A DNA stretch of 61,337 bases from contig JAKLKB010000023.1 in the NCBI GenBank assembly GCA_023150835.1, forward strand, positions 1 to 61,337. The letters are read 5' to 3'. The DNA comes from Myxococcota bacterium (lineage in GTDB: Bacteria > Myxococcota_C > UBA6777). The notes beneath the pieces were generated by a model that was not told the origin of the DNA, made no database searches, and worked only from the letters and a program-made list of their open reading frames with translations. Positions 33,380-54,455 of this stretch are shown here, piece after piece. The position numbers were made by a program, and so were the translations under genes. Each line of letters starts with the position of its first letter. Position 1 is the first letter of the stretch.

Positions 33380-33466
33380 GTCGGTTTGAAAAATCTCTAT
33401 TCACCCCGCCAATACTGGGTCAATGGAGCCGCGCTCTCGTGGGGCGTGGCGTGACACCCCACAAAA
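33380..33466 (+). repeat. ~130 nt dispersed double-hairpin element, copy A (degenerate)
   Basis: gtcggtttgaaaaa...cgccaatactgggtcaa...gtggggcgtggcgtgacaccccacaa aligns with copies B-D. Confidence 0.75.
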
Positions 33467-33620
33467 CCCATTCAACAAGCCAGCCCCAACACAGAAAGAT
33501 CCTTCAAAGCAGGCATCCGTTGGAACCCTTTGCGCGGCGGTGGTGTCTTGCGTCAAGCGACCGTGTCGCCTAGCTTGTGTGGAATCCGTTGGTGGATTCG
33601 TGGTGAAGGAGTGTTTTTTG

Positions 33621-36722: not shown

Positions 36723-37577
36723 TCAAAAGAAGACGTGCATGGCGAGACTCCACCAAAAGAGCTTGGGTGCGCCGACGCCGCCCATGACACGGACGTCGAA
36801 GCGCTCGTGGATAGGGAAGCTAAAGCCGAGGACGAGATCGAGGATCGGGAGGACGGGAGGGACGCGCCCTTCGCGACGCCCACCATCGTCGATGTTTTTG
36901 TTGTCGGGCATGGATGTATTGAGTTTGCAGCCAGCGGGGCAACGGATGGCGGGGACGGGGTTGTTCACGGGGTCTTTTTTCCAGTTTTCGTAGGAGGCTC
37001 CGGTGGGGAGGGTGTCGGTGCGGGTGATCTGCCCGAGGGTGATGCCAAGGCCGATGCCACCGCCCAAAAAGAAACTGACATGGCGATGAAACGGAAAGTG
37101 CTTGATAAAGCGCACATCAAGGGCGATGTAAGATAGGCTGTTTTCTACGATCTCTCGCTCGCTGGGGCTGTCGCCTTTGTTGAGAAAGATGTGGGGGATG
37201 GGGCTTCCTTTGCTGTCGGTTCCGTTGGCGAAGGTGAGATTGTGCCAACCCGCCCCAAAAGCGTACTCGAAATCACCCGCTGAGCGTAAGATGAATTCGA
37301 CTTGGAAGCCGCCGTTGACCACACCCGATGATTCGGAGAAAAACAACCCGTTGAGGAAAAATTCAGGGACAAACAGCATCCCGCCACGTATGCCGATCCC
37401 GTATTTGAAATAGTCGATGCTACCGAGGAAGTTCGCTTTAGGAGTGACGTTGGCTTTGATAGGTGTAGAAGGGGGCGGTGTCGGCGCAGGGACAGCATCA
37501 AGAGAACGGGCATGGGCGGTAGAAAGAGAAAAAGTCAGACTTATGGCAAGCAAAAAGAGAAGGAATGTTCGTCGCAT
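36723..37577 (-). CDS. Outer-membrane beta-barrel protein, hypothetical
   Basis: Signal peptide MRRTFLLFLLAISLTFSLSTAHA; alternating beta strands (YGIGIRGG, FFLGGGIGLG, FDVRVMGGVG); C-terminal Phe. Confidence 0.75.
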   Translation of the reverse strand: MRRTFLLFLLAISLTFSLSTAHARSLDAVPAPTPPPSTPIKANVTPKANFLGSIDYFKYGIGIRGGMLFVPEFFLNGLFFSESSGVVNGGFQVEFILRSAGDFEYAFGAGWHNLTFANGTDSKGSPIPHIFLNKGDSPSEREIVENSLSYIALDVRFIKHFPFHRHVSFFLGGGIGLGITLGQITRTDTLPTGASYENWKKDPVNNPVPAIRCPAGCKLNTSMPDNKNIDDGGRREGRVPPVLPILDLVLGFSFPIHERFDVRVMGGVGAPKLFWWSLAMHVFF

Positions 37578-40396
37578 ATCTGTTTTACCGTGTATTGTGA
37601 GGAGTGAATGGCCGCAGGCATGGACCTGAGACCCGAAGTGTTGGTGCGCAGGAAAGACCACCCTGACCGCGTTGTTCGATGCAAATGAAGCCTGATATCC
37701 GAAGTATTGGTGCGCAGAAGCGTTGTTTTGCGCAAGGGTTTTTGGGAGGGAGGAGTTGAGAGAGCAGGAGGCGGGAGGGCAGGGCGGTGGGAGGTGGCTT
37801 GCATGGGACGCCAAGGAGTGTGAGTGAGATCGCAGGGGGGCGGAGCAGAAGACCGCTGTTGGGGTGAACACAGACGCAAGAGATGTTGGTGGTGTTGTTC
37901 TGCGAAGGAAGGGCGCTGTTTGTGTTGGATCTGGTCGTGCAAGATGGCAGCGCGCAGCGAGACGTTAGGGAGGGGAGGGGAGACTTGTTTTGACCAGAGG
38001 GCGAGGGCGTTTTGGGAGAGCAGGGGTTGAAAAGAGGCGGGTTGGATGGTGTGGAGGGCTTGGAGGATCGGGGGGAGAGGGGAGGGGAGGGGTGATCTTT
38101 TGGGGAAGGCAGCGATGCGTTGGGCTTGGCGAGAAGCGACGAGCGCAACAAGTGGAGCGTGTGGGTTCCAGTCGGCGACAAAGAGTTGTGTGTGTTGAAA
38201 GGTCCGAAGGAAGGGGGGAAGTAACGAGGCGAGAAGGTTTGGAGAGAGGCGGTGAAGAGGGAGCCAAGAGATGTAGAGGCCGTCGGGTTGAAGGCGCTGT
38301 TGGACGGCGGAGAGGTAAGGGAGAGAAAACCGCTGGTCATCTAAATGGGCGGAAGGACGGAAAAGATCGTCGATGATCAGGTCAAAGGAGCGATTGGAGC
38401 GTTGAAGGAAGCGGAGCTTGTTTTGGTGAAGGATGCGGATGCGAGGGTTTTTCCAAACGGAGAGGTTGGCGTGGTGGAAGAGAGGGGCGATGGACGAGAG
38501 GAGTGGGTGTTCTTCGACGCATTGGATATGGGGGGAGGGGTGTTGGGCGAGTGCTGCGAGCGTACTGCCGTTGGAAAGCCCCAAGAGAAGGACGTTTTGT
38601 GCTTTTGGGGACAGCGCATAGGAAAAGTGTCCGAGCAGGTATTGTCGTTGGAGGTCGTGGGGATGGGTTGAGGTGGTGTCGTCGTCGTTGTTGATGGCGA
38701 GGCTGCGGTGAGGTGGTGCGTTTGAAGATGTGGCGGTCTCGTAGACGGCGAGCGTGAGGGCGGTAGCGTCTTTGTAGAACAACAAGCGTTTGTGGGGCTG
38801 ATGCTTGGCGGGATTGATTTGTGGACAGCGGTCTTGTTGCCAAACCCAAAGAGCGAGGGCCAAGCCAGAAGCGAGCGACAAACGCACAAAAGAGGTCGAG
38901 GGCAGCCAACAAAGGAGGGCCAGCGCCATCGACCCATAAGCGGCGGCGATCAACCACAGACTTTCGGCGATGCCGAAGGTGGGCATCCACCAAAAGGCGA
39001 CGGCAAGGCTTCCGAGGATGCTTCCGACGGTGTTGACGGCGTAGAGACGACCTGCGGTGCTTCCTGTTTGGCGGCGATCTTGGGTGGCGAGGCCGATCAA
39101 GATCGGCAGGGCAATTCCCATCAAAAAAGTGACAGGAAACATCAGTACAAAGGCAAAAAAGTTGTCGAAAAAAAGAGTTGTGTTCCAAGAGGCCGTTCCA
39201 TACGCAGCAAGCAAGGTGCTTCTCCACGCGGGGATGCGTGGGAAACACAGCACAGGCAACAAGGATGCTGCGGCGATGGCGAGATAAGCGCGCCAAAGTG
39301 TGCTTGCAGAAGGGGGGCGCGCACGAGCGCAACGTCCGATCCAAAGGGAACCAGCGCCCACACCGAGAAGATAGGCGGACATGACCAACCCAAAGTCCGC
39401 CACCGAGGTTGGCAAGACCAACGAAAGCGAGCGCGTCCACAAGACTTCGAGGCTGATCGAAAGCAGGCCGCTCGCCGCAGCAAGCAACAAAAAAAGCATG
39501 AACGGCAAAGTAGGCGTTGTTCGCTCGGAAGGATGGGCGTCTGTGTGCGGGTGTGTGGTATCCTCGGAAGGATGGGCGTCTGCGTGCGGGTGTGTGGTAT
39601 CCTCGGAAGGATGGGCGTCTGTGTGCGGGTGTGTGGTATCCTCGGAAGGATGGGCGTCTGTGTGCGGATGTGTGGTGATCGCGGAGGGATGGGCGTCTGT
39701 GTGCGGATGTGTGGTATCCTCGGAGGGATGGGCGTCTGTGTGCGGATGTGTGGTGATCACGGAGGGATGGGCGATATCGGTAGCGATGGAGGGGCTGTGA
39801 GGGCTGGGTGTTGGGAGTCGGAGGGTGCGCAACCAGAGAGCGATCGCGAGATTCAGCAGAGCCATGCTCCAAGTGGTTGCGGCTTGCCCAGCGTAGGGAA
39901 GCCACCAAAAGGCGACGACAAAGCATCCGATCACCGCGCCAAGGGTGTTGAATCCATAGAAATAGCCAGTGGCGTGGGTGGGGTTGGGAAGATGGCGGAC
40001 GACGGCGGCCATCGCTGGAAAGACGGCCCCGATCAAGGTGGCGGGGAGGCAAAGGATGGCGGTGCTAAGAGCGAGAAGCAGGGCGGTATTTTCGTGTTGG
40101 CTCGGTAAGTAGGCGAGAAGGGCGTCAGCAGCTTGGAAGAGAAAGGGGACGGTGGAGGCGCTGATGGCGATCAAGAGTTCGAGGCGGGCGTAGAGACGGA
40201 GCGGATCGGGGTGGCGGTCGAAAAAGCGCCCGCCCCAAACGGCTCCAAGGGCCATCCCTGCGAAGAAGATGGAGACGGTCACGGAGACCGCAGGAGTGGA
40301 AGCGCCGAGCAGTTGGTGGAGATAGCGCATCCACGTAATCTCGTAGGCCAGCCCTGCGATCCCCGAAAGAAAGAATGCGATCCATAAGATAACCAC
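37541..40396 (-). CDS. Fused MFS-like/spermidine-synthase-like membrane protein, divergent
   Basis: GTG 40396 after GAGGA; FFLSGIAGLAYEITWMR, YGFNTLGAVIG, LYAVNTVGSILG; degenerate SAM motif VLLLGLSNG; FDLIIDD. Confidence 0.85.
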   Translation of the reverse strand: MVILWIAFFLSGIAGLAYEITWMRYLHQLLGASTPAVSVTVSIFFAGMALGAVWGGRFFDRHPDPLRLYARLELLIAISASTVPFLFQAADALLAYLPSQHENTALLLALSTAILCLPATLIGAVFPAMAAVVRHLPNPTHATGYFYGFNTLGAVIGCFVVAFWWLPYAGQAATTWSMALLNLAIALWLRTLRLPTPSPHSPSIATDIAHPSVITTHPHTDAHPSEDTTHPHTDAHPSAITTHPHTDAHPSEDTTHPHTDAHPSEDTTHPHADAHPSEDTTHPHTDAHPSERTTPTLPFMLFLLLAAASGLLSISLEVLWTRSLSLVLPTSVADFGLVMSAYLLGVGAGSLWIGRCARARPPSASTLWRAYLAIAAASLLPVLCFPRIPAWRSTLLAAYGTASWNTTLFFDNFFAFVLMFPVTFLMGIALPILIGLATQDRRQTGSTAGRLYAVNTVGSILGSLAVAFWWMPTFGIAESLWLIAAAYGSMALALLCWLPSTSFVRLSLASGLALALWVWQQDRCPQINPAKHQPHKRLLFYKDATALTLAVYETATSSNAPPHRSLAINNDDDTTSTHPHDLQRQYLLGHFSYALSPKAQNVLLLGLSNGSTLAALAQHPSPHIQCVEEHPLLSSIAPLFHHANLSVWKNPRIRILHQNKLRFLQRSNRSFDLIIDDLFRPSAHLDDQRFSLPYLSAVQQRLQPDGLYISWLPLHRLSPNLLASLLPPFLRTFQHTQLFVADWNPHAPLVALVASRQAQRIAAFPKRSPLPSPLPPILQALHTIQPASFQPLLSQNALALWSKQVSPPLPNVSLRAAILHDQIQHKQRPSFAEQHHQHLLRLCSPQQRSSAPPPCDLTHTPWRPMQATSHRPALPPPALSTPPSQKPLRKTTLLRTNTSDIRLHLHRTTRSGWSFLRTNTSGLRSMPAAIHSSQYTVKQICDEHSFSFCLP
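39524..39772 (-). repeat. 39 bp tandem repeat x6 (HPSEDTTHPHTDA)
   Basis: + strand unit ctcggaaggatgggcgtctgtgtgcgg(g/a)tgtgtggtatc. Confidence 0.95.
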
Positions 40397-40618
40397 GCGA
40401 CGATCCTCGTAGCAAAGCGCCTCAACGCGGAGTGTCTTTGACCAGAGTTCTTTGAGCGTTTGCGATCGGACGGGAAAAGCGGAGTGGCGGGGCGGTTTGC
40501 GTACCGCCAAGATCAAGGCGTCCGAGTGTGTGCAAACCGCTCTAGATAGGCGGAAGATCGAGGAAAAAGCAAGAGGCACAGGGTGAAAAATCGGTGAAAT
40601 CTGTTGGGCCGAAGCGGT

Positions 40619-42850: not shown

Positions 42851-43867
42851 TCAATTTTTTGGCTTGGTTTGGTGGGAGGAGCGAAGAAGGTCGATCAGTT
42901 GTTGGAGGTCGGGCGGGAGGGGAGAGTCAAAGCAGAGAGGCTCTTGGGTGACGGGATGGGTAAAGGCGAGACGCGCAGCGTGGAGGGCTTGGCGAGGGAA
43001 GTTGCGCAAGAAGTTCGGCCAGTTGTGGGGAGCCGTACCGCCATAAAGAGCATCCCCGATCAGCGGGCGTCCACGATCCGCAAGATGGACGCGGATCTGG
43101 TGCGTTCGCCCCGTATGAAGGCGCAATTGAACCAACGTCGCCAACGCATAACGCTCCACCACCACGAGATCTGTGATGGCGCGGCGTTCGCTTTCCACCA
43201 ACGAGCTAAAGCGCAAACGCTGCGTAGGATGCCGTCCATAGGGCGTATCGATGTGGAGGCTGTCTTCTTGGAAATGGCCGCGTGCGATCGCGAGATAACG
43301 GCGATCAAGGTGTTCTTTGGGGCGCAATCGAAACAGATCCGAGAGACCCCGATGGGACTGATCGTGTTTGGCAACCACCAACAAGCCCGAAGTATCGCGG
43401 TCTAAGCGGTGGACGATCCCGGGACGCAACGCGCCGCCGATCCCCGAAAGATCGCGGCAACGGTGTAACAACGCATTGACGAGCGTTCCGCTTGAATGTC
43501 CCGGGGCTGGATGGACGACCATCCCGACGGCTTTATCGACAACGATCAAGTGTTCGTCTTCAAAAACGATCTGGAGCGGCAGATCTTCGGGGATGGCGGT
43601 GATCGGCTCGGGCGGGGGAGGGATGATCTCGATGGTATCGCCCGAATGGATGCGATCTGCTGGGCGTGCAGGGCGATGGTTGCGGAAAATATGGCCTTCT
43701 TGAATCCAACGCTTGAGTTGAGATCGGCTGTAAGGCAAGCTATCGAGAGCCGCGAGAAAGCGATCAAGCCGTTGTTGGGCGTCTTGGGGGGAAACTTGAA
43801 GGACCAGTGCAGCGGATTCGGCTGAGGCTTCTTCGCTATCTTCCGTTAATTCGATATCTTCGTCCAC
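42851..43867 (-). CDS. rluD: RluA/RluD family 23S rRNA pseudouridine synthase
   Basis: S4 domain RLDRFLA..SRSQLK; VVHPAPG; HRLDRDTSG; TGRTHQIRVH; RQALHA. Confidence 0.92.
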   Translation of the reverse strand: MDEDIELTEDSEEASAESAALVLQVSPQDAQQRLDRFLAALDSLPYSRSQLKRWIQEGHIFRNHRPARPADRIHSGDTIEIIPPPPEPITAIPEDLPLQIVFEDEHLIVVDKAVGMVVHPAPGHSSGTLVNALLHRCRDLSGIGGALRPGIVHRLDRDTSGLLVVAKHDQSHRGLSDLFRLRPKEHLDRRYLAIARGHFQEDSLHIDTPYGRHPTQRLRFSSLVESERRAITDLVVVERYALATLVQLRLHTGRTHQIRVHLADRGRPLIGDALYGGTAPHNWPNFLRNFPRQALHAARLAFTHPVTQEPLCFDSPLPPDLQQLIDLLRSSHQTKPKN

Positions 43868-43930
43868 GTAGTCGGCCTTTTTCCGAGGGCGTTCTTCTCT
43901 CCCAAAAGAGGAGTGACGCAGTTGGACTTC

Positions 43931-44060
43931 GTCTTGTGGGGTGTCACCCCACGCCCCACAAGGGACTGTCGCCCCTTGACCCCGTATTGGCGAACAGATC
44001 GCTGGTTTTTCACGCCAACGACCCTGTCGCTTGGGCGTTCGCGAACACGGGTTTTTTTGC
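43931..44060 (-). repeat. ~130 nt dispersed double-hairpin element, copy C
   Basis: Reverse complement caaaaaaacccgtgttcg...caagcgacagggtcgttggcgtgaaaaa...cgccaatacggggtcaaggggcgacagtcccttgtggggcgtggggtgacaccccacaag is colinear with copy B. Confidence 0.85.
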
Positions 44061-44096
44061 CAACAACGTCACTCCTTCCAAAAATAAAGGGGGATC

Positions 44097-44366
44097 TCAG
44101 TCCCAGATATGGGATTCGAGGTTTTTTTTGCGGTAGAGGATCACGTCGACCACTGCGCGTTCAAAGTAGTTGGTGGTGGCGAGGATCTCGGGCTTGACTT
44201 GGGCTTCGTATTGTTCTTTGCCTTCGGAGAAGAAGTTTTGCAGATCTTCAAAGAAAGAGTCTTTCATCACGCTTTCTTCGACTTTCTTTTTGTTGTACAT
44301 CTCGATGTCTTGGACAATATAGCGTGCGTAGCGCATCGCTTTTTCGGGAGTGTCTTTGCTCGCCAT
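44097..44366 (-). CDS. Conserved small hypothetical protein (89 aa)
   Basis: ATG after GAGGTG; KAMRYARYIVQDIEMYN...EGKEQYEAQV...NYFERAVVDVIL resembles a myxobacterial A-x-R-x-A-R-x-I-x-x-D-I-x-x-Y-N family, recognised from memory. Confidence 0.85.
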   Translation of the reverse strand: MASKDTPEKAMRYARYIVQDIEMYNKKKVEESVMKDSFFEDLQNFFSEGKEQYEAQVKPEILATTNYFERAVVDVILYRKKNLESHIWD

Positions 44367-44641
44367 CGTCGTCACCTCGCGTTGGATTGGTCTTTTGAGT
44401 TTGCACACAACGCCCGCAGCAAAACATGAAGCGATGCGCGTTGTCAAGATTGTGTTGGAGTTTGCGTGGGGGGTTGCGCTGGACAAAATATTTGTCAAAG
44501 TGGAGCGATGTCGGCTACGATCGGGCGGACTCTTGTGGCACGCCATATAGAGACCAAAGCGAGACACCCCTTAGAACAAAGGAGAACCCGACAAAAACGC
44601 ACGATGTTTTCGGTGTGTTTTTCTCGGGTGCTTGTCGGAAG

Positions 44642-47600
44642 ATGACAGAAAAGAAGAAGTCACCCGAGGAAGAAAAGCTGTCCCTTGATGTTCCCGACGC
44701 GTCGTTGTTCCCAGCACTCCAAGAAGACGGAGCCAAGAGAGCGAGCGCTTCTTCCCCGGAAAAACGCAGCCCAGCCAAAGATACCTTTACAAGGGGATTA
44801 AAGGGTCTTGTGGACCCCAAGTCTTTGTTGGAGGCCGACAGTTCGGCTTCTTCTTCAAATGTCGAAAAAGGCCCGTTGTTGCCGAATCCACCCCCCACCC
44901 ATCTCTTGCGTTTGGGGTTCGATGGCCCGATGCCAACCCAAGGCGATCTGAATGCGGTGAGTGCGTCCTTGACGGAGATCGCCCCCGAACCGTTGACGCC
45001 TTTTTCTGCTTTGTCGGGCAGTTGGGAGCGTTGGGGGGGGGCCGCTTTTTTGGACCCTCGCCGTGTTGAACCGCCTCCCCATACCTCGCCTATCTCGGCA
45101 CAGCCCACTCAAAAAGTCTCTTCTTCGGGAAACGCCCCCAATCGGCCAGCCTCGGCACAGCCCACTCAAAAAGTCTCTTCTTCGGGAAACTACCAAACCT
45201 TTTCGGAGGTTGTGCGTGAGCAATCCCGATCGCTTTGGGAACAACCCCAAGAACCCGCCCCGTCACCACAGCCCGCACCCTCTTCTTCACAAATACAGCC
45301 CGATCCATCGCTCGCACAGCCCGCACCCTCTTCTTCACAAATACAGCCCGATCCATCGCTCGCACAGCCCGCACCCTCTTCTTCACAAATACAGCCCGAC
45401 CCATCGCTCGCACAGCCCGCACCCTCTTCTTTGCAAATGCAGCCCGATCCATCGCTTGCCGCACAAGATCCTTTGACGCCGATTGCAGCGGTGGCCTCGT
45501 TGTCTTTGCAGGAAGGGCAGGGCGCGGCCCCCAAAGGCCCATTTAATGCGGGTACGAGTCCATCTTCCACAATGTGGCCGGCCTCTGAACCCAGTTCACC
45601 GCACGAAGACGGGAGTTTTTCTGCGGCTTTTTGGGCCATCGTCGAAGATGCTCCCACTTCTCCCGATGACGATCTGCCGCCCCCTGCCTCGCACGTCCAA
45701 GCAAGTCCTTATCAGCCGTCTCCTCGCCCGTTGGTGGATCCGCTCAAACCTCCGAGTCCGCCTTCCACCCAGTCTCACTTCGATCGCGCCTCTGCCCCCT
45801 TCGACCCGCGCAGGAACCCTGCACTTGATGACGCCGAGGGTCATTCCCCTGCACCGACTTTCCATCCGTATGCTTTGGCCGACTCTCGGGACTTTGGGAA
45901 GCGATCGCCTTCGGGTGGATACGCGATCATGGAGCAGGACGAAACGCAGCTCGAAGATCTCAGCAAGCCCGCCATGCCTGCCGAATCCAAAAGTGCTTGG
46001 GATACTTCCACCCGCAATAAAGCAAAAAGTGTAGAGCTTTCCGCCCCGCCTACACGGACCTCTTCAACAAAGATCGAGACGAACATCCAAGAGGCCACTC
46101 AAGCCTCGCCGACGCGGACTTCTTCATCAAAGATCGAGACGAACATCCAAGAGGCCACTCAAGCCTCGCCGACACGGACTTCTTCATCAAAGATCGAGAC
46201 GAACATCCAAGAGGCCGCACAATCCTCCCGATCGCTCGCCGCCAAAGAGCGCGAAGTGCAGCTTTTGCGTGCGGCCCAACCCACCGACGAGATGCCCACG
46301 TTTACGCTATGGCCCGAAACAGAGGAACCCAAGCCCCACCGCACAAACCCTGCTTCTGCGGTGTGGCCTTCTTTGAATGAATCCGCTGCGCCTCCTGTTC
46401 ATGCCTCCAGCGCGGCGTTTTGGTCGCTCGCCGAACCTGAACCCGCCACCTCGCAGAAAACCACCTTGCCTTCGGTGAAAGCGCCTTCTGATCCTTCCCT
46501 CGCGCAGATCGTGCTAACCGATGCCTCCGACCTGTTGGAGCTGTCCGATTTTTCTGATGTCTCTGAACTGCCTGATCCCTCGAATGACCCGCAATTTTTG
46601 CACTTGGCAAACCCATCTGCGATCTCTGACGTTCCGAATCCATCGAGGCATCCGAACTTGTCCGAGATGTCGGATGCGATGAGGTTTGCAGATTCGTCGG
46701 ATCTCTCGGATGTTATGGAATTTTCGGACGCATCGGATCTCTCGGACGTTATGGGATTTGCGGACGTGTCGAGTCGCAACGATGCACCTGCCTTGAGACG
46801 CGATGCGTCTGTTTTGAAACACTGGCAACAGCCATCTGAAATGGCTCAAGCGATGGCGATGTGGGGAGAAGCGCCTCATGCGCCCGCTGCTTTGCCTGTC
46901 GTGGACAGCCCTCCAACACAACGGCCCTCTTCTCACCGCCGCGAAGTGCGTCAAAGCGCCGGAGATACGCTCGAAGAACCGACCGTAAGCGAGACCCGCT
47001 CCTCGAAGAAGCCCACCCCGCAGGAGGCCAAGAGAAAAGCCATGATCGATCACCCCCACGATCCGACCGATCCATCGCTACAGGATGGATCACGAAAACG
47101 CCGTTCGACTCCATCTTACGCAGATCTTGATGTGGTGCGAAAACTTCAATCGATGTGGATGTTGCCGCCTGAACTGCAAGCCTACGAGCGCGAAGATCGC
47201 GTTGCCATCGGCGACACGGGGATTCATCCTGTTGTGGGTCAACGCGGCACAAACCCGATGGTACCTCCGTTGGCAAAAGCTGCGCGTGGCGAGAGCGGCC
47301 CCCTTCCTTCGGCAGATCTCTCTCAGAAGATCGATCTCTCGAAAAGCACCGAAGCCCCGAACGATACAGAACAAGCCGAGATCGCTTTGGTGGTTTCGAT
47401 TGCACAACAAAAACTGCCGAAGCCGCCTGCTGCTGAGATCCGGCGTACAGTGCTTCCCGAGTACAAACAGCGGGCTGCTGGGGATGCGATCTTGCGGCGT
47501 GTGCAGGCGCGCTACGAAAGCATCCAAGTCATGTCCGAAGATGCGATGTGGCAGATCGAACTCGTTCGCGATCTGGATCTGAAACGCACCGTCGCGATCA

Positions 47601-48583
47601 AACGCTTGAAGCCTGAAATGCACATCCCCCACGCTGTGCTGCGGATGGCCGAAGAAGTTCAGATCATGGCGGGTCTCGCGCATCCCAACATCCCCGAGAT
47701 CCACGATGTTGGCGTCGATGAACAAGGCCGCTATTACTTTGTGATGGAACACCTCAAAGGCGAAACCATGCGTTCCATCCTCAAGAAACTCGCAAGCGGG
47801 GACGTTCGCTATCAAAAGCGATTCCCTCTCCAAACGCGATTGTTGATCTTTCGAGAGGTGCTTCGCGCTGTCGAATATGCCCATCGTAAGGGCATCTTGC
47901 ATCGAAACCTCAATCCTGCGCATGTGGTGGTTGGCGCACGCGACGAAGTCAAGCTCTTGGGTTGGGAGTTGGCTTACAAGTTTCACTCGATGGGCCAAGA
48001 CCCCGAACCGATGGGCGCAGAAGCGATGGATGCGATCTTTGCACCGATGGCTCCGATCCCCGGCCTTGTCACCTCCGAAGTCTTTCGGACACGCGATGGC
48101 CGCATCCAAGGCAGTCCCGCTTACATGGCCCCCGAACAGATCCGAAACCTCTCTTTGTTGATCGACGAACGCAGCGATGTGTACGGCTTGGCGACGCTAT
48201 TCTACGAATGGATCGGATTGCGCTATTATCTGGGACCCAAAAAGACGCTTGATGATCTTAGCGAAGGGATCGTTCGCGAAGAACCTGTTCCTTTGCATCT
48301 GCTTCGTTCCAATGCGCAGCCCGATCTTCCTTGGTCTGTCAGCCAGTTTGCAACACGCGCTTTGCAAAAAGATCCCAACCAACGTTTTGGATCGGCTGCG
48401 GAGATGCGTGCAGCTTTGGAGGCCGTGATCGTGGGAGGAGGCATCACACACAACGGAACACTCCCGCGTGCCTTGCGTTTTTTGGAAGAAAGACCAATTT
48501 GGGCGGGGTCTCTTTTGATCTTGTTTGTTTGTACGTTGATCCTCAGCGGGGTTCAGATCGCAACGTGGTTGCGGGCTTTTTGA
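44642..48583 (+). CDS. Membrane-anchored Ser/Thr pseudokinase with an ~955 aa disordered N-terminus
   Basis: Kinase fold from ~47513 retains VAIK, HPNI, GSPAYMAPEQ and SDVY, but the Gly-loop reads MSEDAMW, the catalytic loop HRNLNPAH and the Mg loop LGWE; C-terminal TM. Confidence 0.9.
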   Translation: MTEKKKSPEEEKLSLDVPDASLFPALQEDGAKRASASSPEKRSPAKDTFTRGLKGLVDPKSLLEADSSASSSNVEKGPLLPNPPPTHLLRLGFDGPMPTQGDLNAVSASLTEIAPEPLTPFSALSGSWERWGGAAFLDPRRVEPPPHTSPISAQPTQKVSSSGNAPNRPASAQPTQKVSSSGNYQTFSEVVREQSRSLWEQPQEPAPSPQPAPSSSQIQPDPSLAQPAPSSSQIQPDPSLAQPAPSSSQIQPDPSLAQPAPSSLQMQPDPSLAAQDPLTPIAAVASLSLQEGQGAAPKGPFNAGTSPSSTMWPASEPSSPHEDGSFSAAFWAIVEDAPTSPDDDLPPPASHVQASPYQPSPRPLVDPLKPPSPPSTQSHFDRASAPFDPRRNPALDDAEGHSPAPTFHPYALADSRDFGKRSPSGGYAIMEQDETQLEDLSKPAMPAESKSAWDTSTRNKAKSVELSAPPTRTSSTKIETNIQEATQASPTRTSSSKIETNIQEATQASPTRTSSSKIETNIQEAAQSSRSLAAKEREVQLLRAAQPTDEMPTFTLWPETEEPKPHRTNPASAVWPSLNESAAPPVHASSAAFWSLAEPEPATSQKTTLPSVKAPSDPSLAQIVLTDASDLLELSDFSDVSELPDPSNDPQFLHLANPSAISDVPNPSRHPNLSEMSDAMRFADSSDLSDVMEFSDASDLSDVMGFADVSSRNDAPALRRDASVLKHWQQPSEMAQAMAMWGEAPHAPAALPVVDSPPTQRPSSHRREVRQSAGDTLEEPTVSETRSSKKPTPQEAKRKAMIDHPHDPTDPSLQDGSRKRRSTPSYADLDVVRKLQSMWMLPPELQAYEREDRVAIGDTGIHPVVGQRGTNPMVPPLAKAARGESGPLPSADLSQKIDLSKSTEAPNDTEQAEIALVVSIAQQKLPKPPAAEIRRTVLPEYKQRAAGDAILRRVQARYESIQVMSEDAMWQIELVRDLDLKRTVAIKRLKPEMHIPHAVLRMAEEVQIMAGLAHPNIPEIHDVGVDEQGRYYFVMEHLKGETMRSILKKLASGDVRYQKRFPLQTRLLIFREVLRAVEYAHRKGILHRNLNPAHVVVGARDEVKLLGWELAYKFHSMGQDPEPMGAEAMDAIFAPMAPIPGLVTSEVFRTRDGRIQGSPAYMAPEQIRNLSLLIDERSDVYGLATLFYEWIGLRYYLGPKKTLDDLSEGIVREEPVPLHLLRSNAQPDLPWSVSQFATRALQKDPNQRFGSAAEMRAALEAVIVGGGITHNGTLPRALRFLEERPIWAGSLLILFVCTLILSGVQIATWLRAF
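45094..46216 (+). repeat. Three in-frame tandem repeats in the pseudokinase N-terminus: 57 bp x2, 48 bp x4, 60 bp x3
   Basis: SAQPTQKVSSSGN at 45094 and 45151; QPAPSSSQIQPDPSLA from 45268; PTRTSSSKIETNIQEATQAS from ~46050. Confidence 0.95.
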
Positions 48584-48626
48584 TACTGTCTCCCCGTTGG
48601 TCCGAAAACAAAGGAACTTTTTTCGC

Positions 48627-51600
48627 ATGACCAAGGGAAAGTCTTTTCCTCCTTCGTCCAGTATCTCTGTCTTTCCCAAAGAAAAAGTTGACGATGCGCG
48701 GCGCGTGACCCAAGACAAAGTTCTTGGAATCGTTGATCCGTTGCTTTTGATGGAAACCCCCGCTGCTGCGCCCAAAGCCTCCAAAAAAAGTAGCGCCTTG
48801 GACGCCATGATGTCGACGGACGATGCGCGCATCGATGATATCTTTGATAGCCTCTTTTTCTCCGAAAACCCCCCTGTCATCGAAGAAGATCTGCTTCGTC
48901 GAAAAAATACCTCCATCGAATCCGCAGTCCAACTTGCAGCCCTCGAAGCTGCCGAGGTGTTCGGCATAAAAACCACCGAACACCTCGCTGCACCACACGA
49001 CTCTTCGGCTCCGCACACCTTCCATCCCTCGCTCGATGCCGTTGCCGCCGCGACACCCTCCCCAACGGGAAACCTCCCCTCGTCTTCGACTTTTTCCGAT
49101 GCGGATGTGGTTGCTTCGCCTCCTTCTTCGGGGGCTTTGCAGCGGCTGCAACATGCCCGAACAGACGGTGATCTGTCGGTGGCCTCCCATGCCCGAACTG
49201 GCGGCGATTTGTCGATGACCCCCAATCCACGAGCGACACAGTTTTCGACGCCTGCCTTGCCTGTGGATCTCAGTACCCTTCAGTTCTCTGCGCCACTTGC
49301 GCAACACGCGATCGTCGAACCCTCTGCGTTGATCCCTCCCGAATCCAAAGGAGATATCTCTTTTCCGATCCCTCTGCCCTCTACAGATCCCAAAAAAGCC
49401 GTCACTTCGCCCTCTACCATCCCATCGGCTTTTCCTTTGGTGGGTGTGCAGCGCTCCCCTTTTCATCTGGCGGCCGATACCTCGTCGAGCCTATCGAAAG
49501 GGCCTGCTGCGGTGCCTTCTTCCGCTCCTTCAAAAACGCCCGATATATCGGCTTCTTTGCAAGATGGGTCATTGAATCCACACGCGACACGGGTTGGATT
49601 ATCGCTTGGGCAATTGATCAATCCGATGGAACTGGGCGTGGAGCTTGTGCAACTTAGCGAAGCCGATCTCAAGGGATCTTTTGGCGATTTTTCCGCCCCC
49701 ACCGCAACCTCCGAAGATTGGGCGGCTCCAAGCACTGCTTCGTCGTCGCTCAACGATCTCCACGAATCTTTCGATGATATCGCACGCGAACCCTTTGGAG
49801 AGGCGTCCCGCGAATCCTTCGACGATATCGCACGTGATGAGTGGACCCCGCCTCCCGACGAAGCCGCCCCCTTGCGGGGCGACACGATCAACCCACTTCA
49901 AACGGCGATGTTTCGTTCTGCTGTCGAGCCTTCACCCCTCGCGCCTGTCTCCATCGAACACCTTTTGCCCAACGAACCCGCCGCAAGCCCACCCACCGCT
50001 CAACCACCCAACGTCGCGCCTTCTCTCTTTCCCGCAACGCGCTTTTCTGAAACGCTTCCGCTCGCCCGCCCGACAGCTTCACAAGGCGCTGCCCTCGGTC
50101 TCTTCGAAGGAACCCCTCTGCGCCACCCCTTGCCACCGCCACAATCAACATCTTCACAGGGCGCTGTCCTCGATATCTTAGAAGGAACCCCTCTTCGCCA
50201 CCCCTTGCCACCGCCACTCGCGGAAACTTCACGGGGCGCTGCCCTTGAGATCTTGGAAGGAACCCCCGCCCATGAAACGACGTTGCCGATGCAACGTCCC
50301 CATCTTTCGACGATCCCGACAAATGAGACGGGTCATACCCCAAGACCTCCAACGCCTCCGCCTCCTAGCCTAAACAAACCTGTTCGGGGCCTTACGCCTC
50401 CGCCTCCTTCTGCGGTCGCAGCGACCCTACAGGACACACCGCGCCCATCGCTCGGTGGCTCGGGGCTTTCTGTCGGAGCCACCTTGCAGGACACGCCCCG
50501 CGCTTCTTTGGCAAATCCGCCTTCTTTGGGGGCCACCTTGCAAGATCAACCGCTCGCCACTCCGAACAAGCCCAACCCCAAGACGCGCACCACCATCTCC
50601 AAAGAAGAAGTCGACTCAGGCGTCTTGTGGAGCGCCGTCCCTGCGCCTTCTTCTCGATCAAATGAAGAAGATCACGCCCCCGAAGAAACCGTCCTCGAAG
50701 CCGAAGTCTCCACCGCCATGAAGGCGATGTCGATGGATCTGTTGAACCCCAAGTCCTCGTATCCATCGGAACGATCGAATCCTAAATCCTCGCATCCCTC
50801 GGAACTGCCGAATCCCAAGTCTTCTTCGCCATCCGCCTCACCTGCTCCCACCGCTACGGCCCCGCAAAGCCCAGACAGCGGCCTCGATCAGACATGGCTT
50901 GCCCATCCTCCACAAGGAACCCATGCGGCTTCCTCGCTGCCTTCGGCTCCCAACAGCGCGATCGCCGGAAATTCCCGAAACACCACGATCCTCCCAAAAG
51001 TCCGTATGACGGGCAAAGTACACGAACTGATCAACGAGATGCGCGAACGCTACGAGGTGGTCCGCAAGCTTGGCGAAGGAGCCGTCGGAGAAGTCAGCCT
51101 CGCCAAAGACAACGATATCCAACGCCTTGTCGCGATCAAACGCCTCAAAGAACCCACCCCCCAAACAGGCTCTTTGGCCCGATTTGTCGAAGAGATCCAA
51201 ACCAACGGACAACTCGAACACCCCAATATCGCGCCTGTGCATGACGTCGGGATCGATGCAGAAGGCCGATACTTCTTTGTGATGAAGTATGTTCGTGGCG
51301 AAAACCTCGAAGAGATCCTCGAAAAACTGCGCAAAGCCGATGCCGAAACCCACCGCCTCTATACACCACATTATCGGGCTCAGATCGCTTTGGAGATCTT
51401 GCGCGCTGTCCAATTTGCCCATGAACAGGGCGTGATCCATCGTGACCTCAAGCCGTCCAACGTGATCGTCGGACCACACGGCGAAGTCATGGTCATGGAC
51501 TGGGGCATCGCCAAGACCTTGCGCACGTCCTCTTCTACCCCTCCGATGGCGTTGCCAGAGGCCCATCCATCGCTGTTTTCGGGCGATATCCTCCAAAAAG

Positions 51601-52136
51601 AAGAACGTGTCTTTGAAACGAGCGTCGGCACCTTGATCGGGACACCTGCGTATATGTCCCCCGAACAAGCGCTGGGATTGAATGACCGTATCGATCAGCG
51701 TAGCGATATCTACAGCTTGTGCGCCATGTTGTACGAATTCTTTAGCCTGCAACATTACATGGGCCACAAAACCGATATCAAGTCCATGCTGATGGGTATC
51801 CTCACCGAAGAACCTGTGCGCATGGATTTTGTTCGCCATCCCCATCAAGATCCCCCGTCGCGTATCCTCGCCGCGCTCTTGCAAAAAGGACTCTCCAAAG
51901 AACCCGCGCAACGTTATGCTTCTGTTCAAGAACTCAGTCACGCCATCCAACACGACTACCTCGAAGGCCAAAATGCGGTCGCTTGTTCGTACTCCCTCAC
52001 GCGCCGAACTGGAAACGAACTCTTGCGCTATCTCGACCGACATCCGAGCCTTGCGCCGATGTTGGCCGTCACGTTGGTCTCCTTTGCCTTGTTTGGCGGG
52101 GCGGCTGCGGTGTATTTTCTGGTTCGGTTGTTTTAG
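48627..52136 (+). CDS. Membrane-anchored active Ser/Thr kinase with an ~810 aa disordered N-terminus
   Basis: LGEGAVG, VAIK, HRDLKPSN, DWG, GTPAYMSPEQ, SDIY; C-terminal TM. Confidence 0.95.
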   Translation: MTKGKSFPPSSSISVFPKEKVDDARRVTQDKVLGIVDPLLLMETPAAAPKASKKSSALDAMMSTDDARIDDIFDSLFFSENPPVIEEDLLRRKNTSIESAVQLAALEAAEVFGIKTTEHLAAPHDSSAPHTFHPSLDAVAAATPSPTGNLPSSSTFSDADVVASPPSSGALQRLQHARTDGDLSVASHARTGGDLSMTPNPRATQFSTPALPVDLSTLQFSAPLAQHAIVEPSALIPPESKGDISFPIPLPSTDPKKAVTSPSTIPSAFPLVGVQRSPFHLAADTSSSLSKGPAAVPSSAPSKTPDISASLQDGSLNPHATRVGLSLGQLINPMELGVELVQLSEADLKGSFGDFSAPTATSEDWAAPSTASSSLNDLHESFDDIAREPFGEASRESFDDIARDEWTPPPDEAAPLRGDTINPLQTAMFRSAVEPSPLAPVSIEHLLPNEPAASPPTAQPPNVAPSLFPATRFSETLPLARPTASQGAALGLFEGTPLRHPLPPPQSTSSQGAVLDILEGTPLRHPLPPPLAETSRGAALEILEGTPAHETTLPMQRPHLSTIPTNETGHTPRPPTPPPPSLNKPVRGLTPPPPSAVAATLQDTPRPSLGGSGLSVGATLQDTPRASLANPPSLGATLQDQPLATPNKPNPKTRTTISKEEVDSGVLWSAVPAPSSRSNEEDHAPEETVLEAEVSTAMKAMSMDLLNPKSSYPSERSNPKSSHPSELPNPKSSSPSASPAPTATAPQSPDSGLDQTWLAHPPQGTHAASSLPSAPNSAIAGNSRNTTILPKVRMTGKVHELINEMRERYEVVRKLGEGAVGEVSLAKDNDIQRLVAIKRLKEPTPQTGSLARFVEEIQTNGQLEHPNIAPVHDVGIDAEGRYFFVMKYVRGENLEEILEKLRKADAETHRLYTPHYRAQIALEILRAVQFAHEQGVIHRDLKPSNVIVGPHGEVMVMDWGIAKTLRTSSSTPPMALPEAHPSLFSGDILQKEERVFETSVGTLIGTPAYMSPEQALGLNDRIDQRSDIYSLCAMLYEFFSLQHYMGHKTDIKSMLMGILTEEPVRMDFVRHPHQDPPSRILAALLQKGLSKEPAQRYASVQELSHAIQHDYLEGQNAVACSYSLTRRTGNELLRYLDRHPSLAPMLAVTLVSFALFGGAAAVYFLVRLF

Positions 52137-52179
52137 ACGGATAGCCGATCGGTTGTTTTAGACGGATAGCCGATCGGTT
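52124..52179. repeat. Perfect 25 bp tandem duplication spanning the kinase stop codon
   Basis: tcggttgttttagacggatagccga x2 plus tcggtt. Confidence 0.95.
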
Positions 52180-52191
52180 TTCCTGTTCGGT

Positions 52192-53088
52192 CTAGGCGCG
52201 GGGGTGGCAACGGTTGTAGACATCGCGTATGCGGGAGCGATTGATGTGGGTGTAGATCTGTGTGGTGACGATCTCGGTGTGTCCAAGAAGGCTTTGAACA
52301 GCCCGCAGATCGGCTCCGTGTTCGAGAAGATGGGTGGCGAAAGAGTGGCGGATCTTGTGGGGGCAGATCGGGCGTTCGATCCCGGCACATCGGGCGTAAT
52401 GGCGGATATTTTTCCAGAAAGCTTGGCGGGTGAGTGCGCCGCCGCGTGTGGTGACAAACAGGTAATCGCTTTGGTGATCTTTGAGCAGTTTGGCGCGTGC
52501 GGATTCGAGATAGCGGGCGGTGCGTTCTTGGGCGGCTTGGCCGATGGGGACGATGCGCTCTTTTCGCCCTTTGCCGAACACGACGATGTATCCGACTTCA
52601 AAGTCGATATCGGCGAGGCGTAGCGAGCAAAGCTCGGTGACGCGGACGCCTGTGGCATACAGCAGTTCGAGCATCGCAGCGTCGCGGATCTGTGTGGCCG
52701 ATGGGGAGGGGCTTGACGAAGGTTGCGCAAGCAACTTTTCTACTTCGTCTTGGGTGAGATAGTCGGGCAGTTTGCGGCCATGACGGGGGATCTCGACGGT
52801 CGCGCAAGGATTGCGCATCAGGATATCTTCTGCGACGAGAAACTTAAAAAATCCGCGCAACGAGATCAAAAAACGCGCTTGGCTGCGGGGTTTGATGCCT
52901 TCTTCGGTGACGTGCAACAGATAATCCAATAGCGTGGTGGGGGTGACTTCTTTGAGATCGCTGATCTGTTGGCCTTGGAGAAAGCGAAAGAATTTACGGA
53001 TGTCGCGTTGGTAGGAGTCGATGCTGTGGGGGGTCAGTCCTTTTTCAACGCGGATATAGTGGAGATAAAGTTGAAGAACCTGCTCCAT
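52192..53088 (-). CDS. xerD: Site-specific tyrosine recombinase XerD
   Basis: Real start MEQVLQLYLHYIRVEKGL at 53088; LLYATGVRVTEL, GKGRKERIVP, TRQAFW, PHKIRHSFATHLL, LGH, TTQIYTH. Confidence 0.92.
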   Translation of the reverse strand: MEQVLQLYLHYIRVEKGLTPHSIDSYQRDIRKFFRFLQGQQISDLKEVTPTTLLDYLLHVTEEGIKPRSQARFLISLRGFFKFLVAEDILMRNPCATVEIPRHGRKLPDYLTQDEVEKLLAQPSSSPSPSATQIRDAAMLELLYATGVRVTELCSLRLADIDFEVGYIVVFGKGRKERIVPIGQAAQERTARYLESARAKLLKDHQSDYLFVTTRGGALTRQAFWKNIRHYARCAGIERPICPHKIRHSFATHLLEHGADLRAVQSLLGHTEIVTTQIYTHINRSRIRDVYNRCHPRA

Positions 53089-53225
53089 CGGGTTTCCTCG
53101 TTTCTTCTCGGGTTGCTTCTGTGCAGTGGATCGTGTGAAGTCGGCCTCTTGGGAAATGGACCCACCAAGAACACAAGCATTGTGGGGTGTTTGGCTCGAA
53201 ATGTCAAAGTTTTCGAGCGCAGAGA

Positions 53226-54455
53226 TCAACGCCGAGGATATGCAGCCGAGCGATCGGATGGGGAGATGGGTTTGTGTTCTCGCTCTGGAGAAGTCCGACG
53301 CATCGGGGCCGAGGAAGGGGGGGGAGGGGGCCGACGCATCGGGGCCGAGGCGGGGTCTGGAGGAGTTCGGCGTATCGGGGCCGAGGAGGAGGGGAGAGAG
53401 CGCGGAGCAAAGCAAGACAACAGCACCGCGTAATGAGGGATCTTTTGGAGGGGAGCGAAGTCGCTGTCTTTGCAGGCGAGTTTGCGGTAGGCAGGTTGTA
53501 GGAGCAGCGGCTTTAAAAGCGCGATGGCTTGTTCCAACCGACCGAGCAGACTGTAGGTGCAAGCGAGGTTGTAGCGTGCGTCCGAAAATTGCGGATCGAG
53601 CAGGGCTGCGCGGGAAAAGTCTTGGGCGGCTTGTGGGTAGCGTTTTTGATCGTGGGCGCGGTAGCCTCGGGCATGAAAGAGTTGTGCGAGATGTGTATCG
53701 AGCGCCCAAAGATAGCGTTGGGTGATCCAATGCCCGCCTTGATGGAGTCCGTAATCGATCTCGATCCAACACCACCGCTGATGACAAGACAGTCGCCGAA
53801 TATGCGCTTGTTCGGGGGCTGCGAGCGCAGGGGTGAGTGAGCGGTGATACTCGTCGAACAGAGTCAGCGCAAGGTGCGGTTCCTCGTTTTGTTGAGCGCG
53901 AAAAGACACAAAAAGGCGGGTGGATGGGGGCCAATGAGCGCGCACTAAGGGGAGAGTTGTGAGAAGCGCGCTGGGGTCGAGCGCAAGCCCCAAGCCCCGA
54001 AGAGGGATGGAACGTGACGGAGGAGAAAGCCATCGCCAGCGCGGTGCGCCTTTGGGAGAAGGCCAGCGGCGTCTCGCGATCTGTTGGGCGAGCGCCCACA
54101 GCGCCGCTTCGATGGCTTTGGGAGCAGAGGGCGAGCGCGTTGCAAACAACGCAAACAGCGGGTGTTGTGGAGACAACGTTGCGGGAGGGCGCAGCGTCTC
54201 TTGGTGGCGCTCCACGAGGGTCTCGGGCGCTTGGTAGCGTGTAAAGAACAGGGTCGGTGTTTGTTGATCTCCGCGTAAGAATTCGACTTCGAGCCGTTCT
54301 GCGGTTTGCGGATCCCAAGCGAGTACGCGACGGATATGCACGATCGGCGGGGGATTGCAGTGGTGGCCTGCAAGCAACACGCTCCAACCCGCCCACCAGA
54401 AAAGGCACGCGAAAACCTTTCTTTCTGTGCATGGGTTTGTTATCTTGAGGCGCAT
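53226..54455 (-). CDS. TPR-containing hypothetical protein, probably exported
   Basis: ARYNLACTYSLLG...ACKDSDFAPL terminal TPR motif; start uncertain; C-terminus carries 3 short repeats (53294-53390). Confidence 0.7.
   Translation of the reverse strand: MRLKITNPCTERKVFACLFWWAGWSVLLAGHHCNPPPIVHIRRVLAWDPQTAERLEVEFLRGDQQTPTLFFTRYQAPETLVERHQETLRPPATLSPQHPLFALFATRSPSAPKAIEAALWALAQQIARRRWPSPKGAPRWRWLSPPSRSIPLRGLGLALDPSALLTTLPLVRAHWPPSTRLFVSFRAQQNEEPHLALTLFDEYHRSLTPALAAPEQAHIRRLSCHQRWCWIEIDYGLHQGGHWITQRYLWALDTHLAQLFHARGYRAHDQKRYPQAAQDFSRAALLDPQFSDARYNLACTYSLLGRLEQAIALLKPLLLQPAYRKLACKDSDFAPLQKIPHYAVLLSCFAPRSLPSSSAPIRRTPPDPASAPMRRPPPPPSSAPMRRTSPEREHKPISPSDRSAAYPRR

Follow-up and report, generated by a model that had tools for sequence, protein, structure and literature searches.

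Introduction

A dead kinase fold can regulate a live one by contact, as in the eukaryotic pairs HER3–EGFR, JAK JH2–JH1 and STRAD–LKB1. The locus described here raises the question whether such allosteric control, familiar from eukaryotes, is at work in bacteria too. The locus consists of two adjacent genes, termed A and B, on contig JAKLKB010000023.1 (assembly GCA_023150835.1) of an uncultured Myxococcota bacterium (GTDB lineage Bacteria; Myxococcota_C; UBA6777); the whole contig, 61,337 nucleotides long, is hereafter the window. As judged from its motifs, gene A is a catalytically dead Hanks-type pseudokinase, and directly downstream of it lies gene B, a paralogue in which the canonical motifs are complete; together they form a candidate bacterial pseudokinase–kinase partnership. 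Their homology to the eukaryotic pairs is confined to the kinase fold; those pairs are built from separate genes or from fused domains.

Among solved structures, the best match to A is PknB of Mycobacterium tuberculosis (PDB 1MRU and others; E 3.7e-27), at low identity and with the match split by the long insert in the activation segment of A. PknB is an active, homodimeric kinase with extracellular PASTA sensors, whereas A is dead, has no extracytoplasmic domain and carries an N-terminal region of 933 aa. According to the available passages of PMC13434768, the back-to-back N-lobe dimer of PknB positions the αC helix for activation, and the substitutions L33D and D76A have been used to break this dimer. 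A back-to-back dimer with a scaffold role is described for the pseudokinase domain of M. tuberculosis MviN in the accessible part of a pseudokinase review (PMC12599244).

Bacterial pseudokinases have also been classified. In the passages available of a bacterial Ser/Thr kinase atlas (bioRxiv 10.1101/2025.01.12.632604), 42 families are distinguished, seven of them pseudokinase families (ActPs1-3, GLW, CP1, DYD and DLHK); all seven have the VAIK lysine substituted, fully or partly, and none is myxobacterial. Like A, these families combine a Hanks fold with a changed catalytic triad and family-level conservation, and GLW has a C-terminal helix. Compared by description only, as given in those passages, A differs from all seven in keeping the VAIK lysine and in reading HRN and GWE, not GLW, and it falls outside descriptions that call for a substituted VAIK lysine and for motifs such as GLW in place of HRD. 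The atlas passages on the seven families describe no operon with an active paralogue, and neither "heterodimer" nor "Myxococc" occurs in the accessible text of PMC12599244. A literature search on bacterial kinase–pseudokinase operons gave a full-text match only on viral pseudoenzymes, and one on tail-anchored Hanks kinases under that name returned unrelated papers only.

Anchoring by a C-terminal helix is equally familiar. A kinase domain that carries a C-terminal helix and nothing else is the commonest bacterial Ser/Thr kinase architecture (25 of 42 families, in the available passages of the source). Bacillus subtilis YabT, as presented in the accessible part of PMC6333020, resembles A and B in its C-terminal helix anchor and in having no extracellular receptor domain; unlike them, it is active, is switched on by DNA through a basic juxtamembrane region, and has neither a giant N-terminal region nor a dead partner. 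In Myxococcus xanthus, 11 predicted pseudokinases are counted among 99 kinases in the passages available of PMC6791715, and the kinome of our source genome is similarly large and expanded, with a degenerate minority (7 of 155 domains). No orthology to a named M. xanthus gene emerged, and no search aimed at it was made.

The original prediction of this pair, made by a model from the letters alone, had presented it as its best candidate for an undescribed system. Given the catalogued bacterial pseudokinases, the prevalence of the kinase-plus-helix architecture and the pseudokinases of M. xanthus, that claim was overstated: bacterial dead kinases and tail-anchored kinases are already known, each separately. 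What is new is a lineage that keeps the lysine together with HRN and GWE, its conserved place directly upstream of an active paralogue, and very long, fast-evolving N-termini with conserved islands. Bacterial pseudokinases are catalogued but have hardly been studied at the bench, as the accessible text of PMC12599244 puts it; the A–B pair offers a compact test case, with a dead partner under selection and a partly degenerate relative, P0186.

A degenerate and an intact kinase encoded in tandem

Genes A and B are open reading frames (ORFs) on the forward strand (Table 1), the stop codon of A (48581-48583) being followed by a gap of 43 bp to the ATG of B. Of the genomes compared, G000 is the source genome, G001 and G002 are the other two species of its genus, and G004 belongs to another genus of the same family. 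The upstream-most ATG of the ORF of A lies at 44426; we take ATG 44642 as the start because the G002 orthologue begins exactly there, at MTEKKK. The ATG of B is nested in an ORF that opens at TTG 48597. Both proteins pass the curated cut-off of the Pfam Pkinase profile PF00069 (31.7 bits) and thus have a Hanks-type fold by this measure, A scoring 83.7 bits over residues 977-1251 of 1313 and B 144.9 bits over residues 809-1111 of 1169. BLASTP aligns the two over 409 residues at 33% identity (E 5e-69), a stretch running from an RxT[VI]LP motif through the kinase domain and on to the helix at the C terminus. In a wider set of sequences the proline of the RxT[VI]LP motif is invariant (60 of 60) and its leucine is kept in at least 90%.

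Of the triad that defines an active kinase (VAIK-Lys, HRD-Asp, DFG-Asp), A keeps only the lysine and reads HRN and GWE at the other two positions; B has all three, with DWG as the subfamily form of DFG. The HRD column holds Asp in 100% of the 54 other subfamily members and Asn in A, as also in the catalytic loop of HER3. Neither the GxGxxG pattern nor the Lys and Asn of the catalytic loop is found in A (HRNLNPAH), and both are present in B (GEGAVG, HRDLKPSN). All three glycines of the Gly-loop are replaced in A by acidic and bulky residues (S-E-D-A-M-W against GEGAVG in B), and the tryptophan stands where 96% of 54 subfamily members have Gly. In the GT motif that precedes APE, A has Ser for Thr. 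The αC-helix Glu is kept alongside the VAIK lysine.

We scored the source kinome against a profile built from the genome's own kinases, which gave 155 domain rows covering the key columns. As many as 148 of these are canonical and seven are changed; A is the only row of the 155 that is without HRD-Asp, loop Asn and DFG-Asp together yet has the lysine. The genome holds a second degenerate kinase next to a live one. On contig C176 (G000:C176:1-2704, reverse strand), a kinase with neither VAIK-Lys nor HRD-Asp, unrelated to A and ending in a hydrophobic helix, is encoded on the same strand as an active kinase and upstream of it. The active gene is cut by the contig end, and both C176 kinases begin with Cys-x2-Cys ... 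Cys-x2-Cys.

Each of A and B has a single hydrophobic segment, within the last 28 residues and with three residues behind it. Membrane helices were called from the mean Kyte–Doolittle hydropathy in a 19-residue window at a threshold of 1.6, and windows at or above this value are confined to the last 45 residues of both proteins. A lone helix at the extreme C terminus and no extracytoplasmic domain characterise A and B alike as tail-anchored.

Most of what had been read from the letters alone is borne out by these results: two co-oriented genes 43 bp apart with homologous domains, the loss of the Gly-loop, HRD-Asp and DFG-Asp from A, and the retention of VAIK, the APE segment and an intact frame; the position given for HRN, 47900, is likewise right. 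The common architecture that had been ascribed to A and B stands for the Pro/Ser-rich N-terminus, the RxT[VI]LP motif, the kinase domain and the single C-terminal transmembrane helix, and does not extend to the N-terminal sequences, which share no detectable similarity beyond composition. No NCBIfam model exceeded its cut-off for A, for B or for the 89-aa ORF upstream of A, and Rfam gave no match at E up to 0.1 across 43800-52400.

The dead domain is maintained by selection

The ratio of nonsynonymous to synonymous substitution rates (dN/dS) was calculated by the Nei–Gojobori method over the kinase and transmembrane part (380 codons). For A it is 0.044 against G001 and 0.107 against G002 (synonymous divergence, dS, 1.33), very like the values for B (0.031 and 0.125, respectively). 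The A orthologues are 97% identical in the kinase part in G001 and about 78-79% in G002; for B, identity between G000 and G002 is 74%. The motif set S-D-W, K, E, HRN..N..H and GWE is identical in the three species.

An early origin of the dead state is indicated by a more distant relative. The metagenome protein P0011, with its cluster mate P0275 (897 aa), is 56-57% identical to A and reads HRNLTPSN and MGWE with the lysine kept. HRN and GWE are thus found in four of four A-lineage sequences, one of them only 56% identical, and the VAIK lysine and αC-helix Glu are kept in all. Frames are intact in three species (about 3.1-3.9 kb) and in two metagenome sequences. Only three representatives of the lineage were found among 1.84 billion cluster representatives, after which the score falls sharply from 491 to 270 bits. 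In a scan of the genome collection with the generic pattern [TS]PAY[ML][AS]PEQ, the matches listed (at least 80) were ordinary kinases at no more than 35% identity.

Purifying selection and an intact frame across species are what a functional pseudokinase should display, and A displays both. A is selectively maintained and is not decaying, because dN/dS is 0.04-0.11, the frames are intact and the motifs are kept down to 56% identity. Orthologues with an intact HRD or DWG, or with a frameshift, had been named beforehand as findings that would undo the idea of a preserved dead partner; none turned up among the A-lineage sequences, and dN/dS showed no decay.

Apparent stepwise loss and new constraint

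The subfamily tree suggests that catalysis was lost step by step in the A lineage, with DFG-Asp going first, because the sister of that lineage (P0186; 69-row tree, Shimodaira–Hasegawa-like approximate likelihood ratio test 96) has GWE but still HRD. P0186 also has a dead Gly-loop and His in place of the loop Asn. The stem of the A lineage measures 1.2 substitutions per site against 0.59 for B, and rates within the two clades are alike.

The sequences further indicate that the A lineage has gained new constraint and has not undergone loss alone, because 49 conserved positions are specific to A, 15 of them in the activation segment. These 49 were counted among the 194 columns invariant in the four A sequences, as columns whose residue occurs in <10% of the 54 other subfamily members; the activation segment was taken as residues 181-220 of the 393-aa part. 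Here A carries an insert that is conserved, acidic and proline-rich, with the pattern GQDPEPxGAEAxD. The four A sequences have their longest run of shared, identical residues between the αC helix and the HDVG motif.

DFG-Asp has been lost at four separate places in the subfamily tree: as GWE in the A lineage with P0186, as GWE in P0205, as GWG in P0168 and as NWW in P0155. GWE itself appears at two of these places, and HRD-Asp is kept in P0186 and P0205. From this pattern the repeated swap of D-W-G for G-W-E looks non-random.

Long N-terminal regions with conserved islands

Neither the 933-aa N-terminal region of A nor the 784-aa one of B is matched by a Pfam family, and in each about 67% of residues are P, S, T, A, E, Q, D or G. 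Composition is all that they have in common: the two are not alignable (hhalign probability 0.08%). They evolve faster than the kinase part, at dN/dS 0.24-0.28, the value for A being 0.28. Tandem DNA repeats that keep the reading frame (48, 60 and 75 nt; 84-96% matches) occupy 45267-45456 and 46043-46231 in A and 50073-50266 in B; the G001 orthologue of A has a different repeat, PPQPEQHAL, at the corresponding place, so these repeats turn over quickly.

Between the repeats of A lie conserved islands. One, of 43 residues, is the best-conserved part of A outside the kinase domain (Table 1), and 17 of its residues are identical also in the metagenome member at 56% identity. The region is otherwise poor in aromatic residues and holds twelve tryptophans, often in similar contexts (STMWPASE, TFTLWPETE, AVWPSLNE, AAFWAIVED, SMWMLPPE), several of them within the islands shared by three species. 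A VDPxxLL motif in the N-terminal regions was considered as a sign of a partner common to A and B and was set aside (BLAST E 2.7, hhalign 0.08%, uninformative genome motif scan).

Conserved gene order and signs of joint expression

All three species genomes available for the genus have A followed by B on the same strand. For the G002 species, two assemblies give the A and B proteins consecutive accession numbers, and in a second assembly of the G001 species both genes lie on one contig of 689,769 bp. The flanks are the same in G000 and G002: a kinase of 720-738 aa, an RluD-like gene with the 89-aa ORF (opposite strand), A, B, a convergent Xer-like gene and a TPR gene. In G002 the A–B spacer is about 35 bp, as counted by eye from the alignment, with AAGG present, and comparison of G000 with G002 revealed no conserved terminator between the genes. 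A hairpin at 48558-48574, in the 3' end of A, was rejected as an attenuator, as it is absent from G002 and the scan gave 18 such sites against 10.7 expected.

Contigs assembled from RNA libraries (four RNA-seq runs, one sample) cover A and B and cross the junction in four of four runs, e.g. at 47782-52003. We infer that A and B are probably co-transcribed as one operon. The RNA contigs begin at 44523-44532 in all four runs, just after a promoter-like site, and end at 52003-52153, with low cover at 53357-54138; contigs cannot show RNA ends, stretches that they leave uncovered carry no weight, the data come from one sample of one study, and none of these observations is used as evidence. An apparent RNA joint from 44990 to 49539 was disregarded, its shorter side being only 20 letters long.

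Origin of the locus

The slot occupied by the pair can be followed outside the genus. In G004, just one subfamily kinase (G004:C3; L102, 10813-13560) stands between the RluD-like gene, accompanied by its 89-aa ORF, and the Xer-like gene; this protein of 915 aa has canonical motifs, an N-terminal region that is long and acidic, and a terminal helix. In G005 the slot holds a 536-aa kinase with a cyclic-nucleotide-binding domain (G005:C43; L103, 10022-11632), and in G003 no kinase was found in the slot by the RluD-like gene.

Position speaks for local duplication of a single active gene, with the copies then diverging unequally, because G004 holds a single active subfamily kinase in the slot; the trees neither support nor reject it. 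In the approximately unbiased (AU) test, a clade of A, B and the G004 gene has p 0.179 and one of B with the G004 gene alone has p 0.024, for groups that were named after the tree had been inspected. Alternatively, G004 may have lost an A-like gene, a possibility opened by relatives of the A lineage at 56% and about 35% identity. A polar motif in the transmembrane helix, SGVQI..W, was discarded as a link between A and the G004 gene, similar motifs occurring in other paralogues.

A possible non-catalytic partnership and its alternatives

We interpret A as acting on or with B without catalysis, a non-catalytic partnership that is plausible while falling just short of probable. Both proteins would be held in the cytoplasmic membrane by their C-terminal helix with their whole mass in the cytoplasm, where the kinase-fold domain of A would bind the kinase domain of B and thereby set its activity or its targeting. 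Two surfaces are candidates for the contact, namely the conserved N-lobe back-to-back surface known from PknB and the repurposed, A-specific activation segment; the long disordered N-terminus of A, with its conserved short islands, may add further docking sites. Binding of A to B, an allosteric effect and an input that is cytoplasmic rather than external are each proposed here as parts of this scheme. By alignment to 1MRU, A has Leu and Asp at the equivalents of PknB L33 and D76, and B has Ile and Asp there, so that the residues expected of a back-to-back contact are present in both. The dead-upstream-of-live pair on C176 was counted in favour of partnership.

In a stricter version, A and B would form an obligate heterodimer tethered to the membrane, with the live subunit switched allosterically by the dead one; the pair would have come from a single active kinase, duplicated at a fixed chromosomal slot, and from a stepwise loss that took DFG-Asp first and HRD-Asp later. 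With the second dead–live pair in the same genome and the four separate losses of DFG-Asp, such a design seems to recur. We hold this version to be unlikely, though not strikingly so; if true, it would provide a bacterial counterpart of HER3–EGFR or JAK JH2–JH1. Should A and B prove not to interact, the locus would remain a clear instance of duplication in which a signalling enzyme has been retained for a role other than catalysis.

Several findings weigh against a dedicated A–B partnership. Their subfamily has seven paralogues in G000, and besides A and B there are thus five more, on contigs C123, C12, C55, C106 and C197. The description of A and B as a tandem paralogue pair is right as to paralogy and adjacency, and is weakened as to closeness: B is not the nearest paralogue of A in G000, and the two are not sisters in the best maximum-likelihood trees, where the joint clade of A and B is not rejected (AU p 0.117). 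All seven paralogues have a C-terminal kinase domain and a terminal helix, with mutual scores of 225-383 bits against at most 170 for other kinases. The N-lobe residues equivalent to PknB L33 and D76 are conserved subfamily-wide (Asp invariant, Leu or Ile in at least 90%) and would therefore permit dimerisation without pointing to B as the partner. Kinase genes adjoining on the same strand are common in G000, with 17 pairs within 4 kb against 6.3 +/- 2.4 under random placement, so adjacency by itself says little.

The pair is moreover documented in three species of one genus, and such close kin are not independent observations. Adjacency holds in all three species genomes of the genus and in two more assemblies, and is in doubt in a fourth species that has B and in which no A protein was detected. 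There the orthologue of B, P0152, with an identity of 86% in the kinase part and of 65% across the whole protein, lies on a contig of 972,444 bp, and searches of proteins of 30-721 and 722-2298 aa gave, for this species, no A-like protein above 56% identity beyond those already known; A may be missing there, may have gone uncalled or may have been marked as broken. Conversely, a protein search for relatives of B traced no B-like match to the contig of P0011/P0275, and a metagenome scan with the A-lineage alignment found three loci at 20-31% identity, the P0011 contig not among them. RNA contigs spanning two genes, finally, do not show a single transcript, and DNA carry-over is possible.

These findings lend themselves to a different account, in which A is a non-catalytic scaffold, adaptor or decoy independent of B, perhaps partnering one of the five other tail-anchored paralogues or non-kinase proteins that its N-terminal islands recruit, and its place beside B is only a relic of the locus's origin. 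The presence of the fold and of the candidate dimer residues in all seven paralogues, the frequency of tandem kinase genes and the species with B and no A protein all fit such a role. So do the N-terminal regions: with no detectable common sequence, A and B probably bind different things, and A has conserved islands of its own, including the 43-residue one kept in a distant relative. The order A–B, the short spacer and the flanks have nonetheless been kept in three species over a synonymous divergence above 1, and the junction is bridged in every RNA-seq run of the one sample; we regard independence from B as rather doubtful. The selection analysis contradicts a yet simpler account, that A is a recently inactivated duplicate, without function and drifting toward loss. 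The missing catalytic residues and the one B-carrying species without a detected A protein would suit it, but dN/dS of 0.04-0.11 over 380 codons with dS up to 1.3, frames of about 3.1-3.9 kb intact in all copies, motifs conserved to 56% identity, A-specific conserved positions and the presence of the gene in RNA libraries make it barely credible.

A could also be an enzyme with an unusual active site. The change from DWG to GWE would move the metal-binding carboxylate by two positions, and with the Lys–Glu pair still holding a nucleotide A might retain weak kinase or another nucleotide-dependent activity. The lysine and the αC-helix Glu kept throughout the A lineage are what this account would require, and the separate occurrences of GWE, in company with HRD-Asp in P0186 and P0205, agree with it. 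It has to contend with the loss of the catalytic base (HRN), of the loop Lys and Asn and of all three Gly-loop glycines, and with the change of the GT-motif Thr before APE to Ser; we consider it quite improbable, and retain the non-catalytic partnership of A with B as our working interpretation.

Genome setting and further features

The window, contig C157, is one of 239 contigs in an assembly of 7.56 Mb that is 93% complete. For its size the genome has a very large kinome, with at least 153 Pkinase matches in 7.56 Mb. The source group has only six species genomes at phylum level in the collection. Near-identical DNA was found in sludge and activated-sludge metagenome runs from several studies. 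Otherwise the window is ordinary chromosome, encoding GyrA, the ATP synthase a subunit, ClpB, a radical-SAM/TRAM enzyme, a lytic transglycosylase and three further kinase genes; in the window no FHA or phosphatase gene lies near A or B.

Table 1. Positions in the window of features belonging to genes A and B or adjoining them.
Feature	Position	Strand	Evidence
Sigma-70-like promoter match TTGTCA-18-TACGAT, 5' of A	44492..44521	+	Consensus scan; 2 found against 2.5 expected, weak alone
Gene A, tail-anchored Hanks-type pseudokinase, 1313 aa	44642..48583	+	ORF; start conserved in G002; Pfam
N-terminal region of A, 933 aa, Pro/Ser/Ala-rich, conserved islands between variable repeats	44642..47440	+	Composition, alignment
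43-residue island of A, PSYADLDVVRKLQSMWMLPPE..., best-conserved part outside kinase domain	47111..47239	+	Identical in 3 species
RRTVLP motif of A, N-terminal to kinase domain	47441..47458	+	T, L and P invariant in 8/8 sequences
Degenerate Gly-loop of A, MSEDAMW	47531..47551	+	Motif reading; alignment
Pseudokinase domain of A, PF00069 match	47570..48394	+	Pfam; closest solved relative PknB
VAIK of A, lysine kept	47591..47602	+	VAMK in G002, VVIK in P0011
Catalytic loop of A, HRNLNPAH (Asp to Asn, Lys to Asn, Asn to His)	47900..47923	+	Motif reading; subfamily alignment
LGWE of A, at site of subfamily DWG (DFG) motif	47957..47968	+	Motif reading; subfamily alignment
A-specific activation-segment insert, GQDPEPMGAEAMD	47993..48031	+	Identical or nearly so in 4 A-lineage sequences
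SPAYMAPEQ of A	48113-48139	+	Motif reading
C-terminal transmembrane helix of A, 3 residues after	48497..48571	+	Hydropathy
43-bp spacer with AAGG(A) ribosome-binding-like site	48584..48626	+	Sequence; AAGG kept in G002
Gene B, tail-anchored Hanks-type kinase, canonical motifs complete, 1169 aa	48627..52136	+	ORF, Pfam, motifs
Kinase domain of B (LGEGAVG, VAIK, HRDLKPSN, MDWG, SPE)	51051..51959	+	Pfam, motifs
C-terminal transmembrane helix of B	52050..52124	+	Hydropathy
Perfect tandem repeat, 25 nt, 2.2 copies; hairpin of 16 pairs across the B stop codon and just past it, between convergent B and xer	52124..52179	.	Unique in genome

The hairpin behind B is a possible terminator, to go by its predicted pairing. 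Between the RluD-like gene and A, the 89-aa ORF (44100-44369, reverse strand) is matched by neither Pfam nor NCBIfam; identity to its counterparts is 95.5% (G002), 81% (G004) and 76% (G005), and in every case it adjoins the RluD-like gene. On the other side of the pair, the Xer-like match covers only the last ~300 residues of a 746-aa ORF (52192-54432, reverse strand), and the true start probably lies far downstream of the first ATG, because the G002 and G004 orthologues have 302-310 aa. Elsewhere in the window, a 1012-aa ORF (37541-40579, reverse strand) joins a major-facilitator transporter to a spermidine-synthase-like domain, and a 797-aa ORF (33423-35816, forward strand) contains collagen triple-helix repeats.

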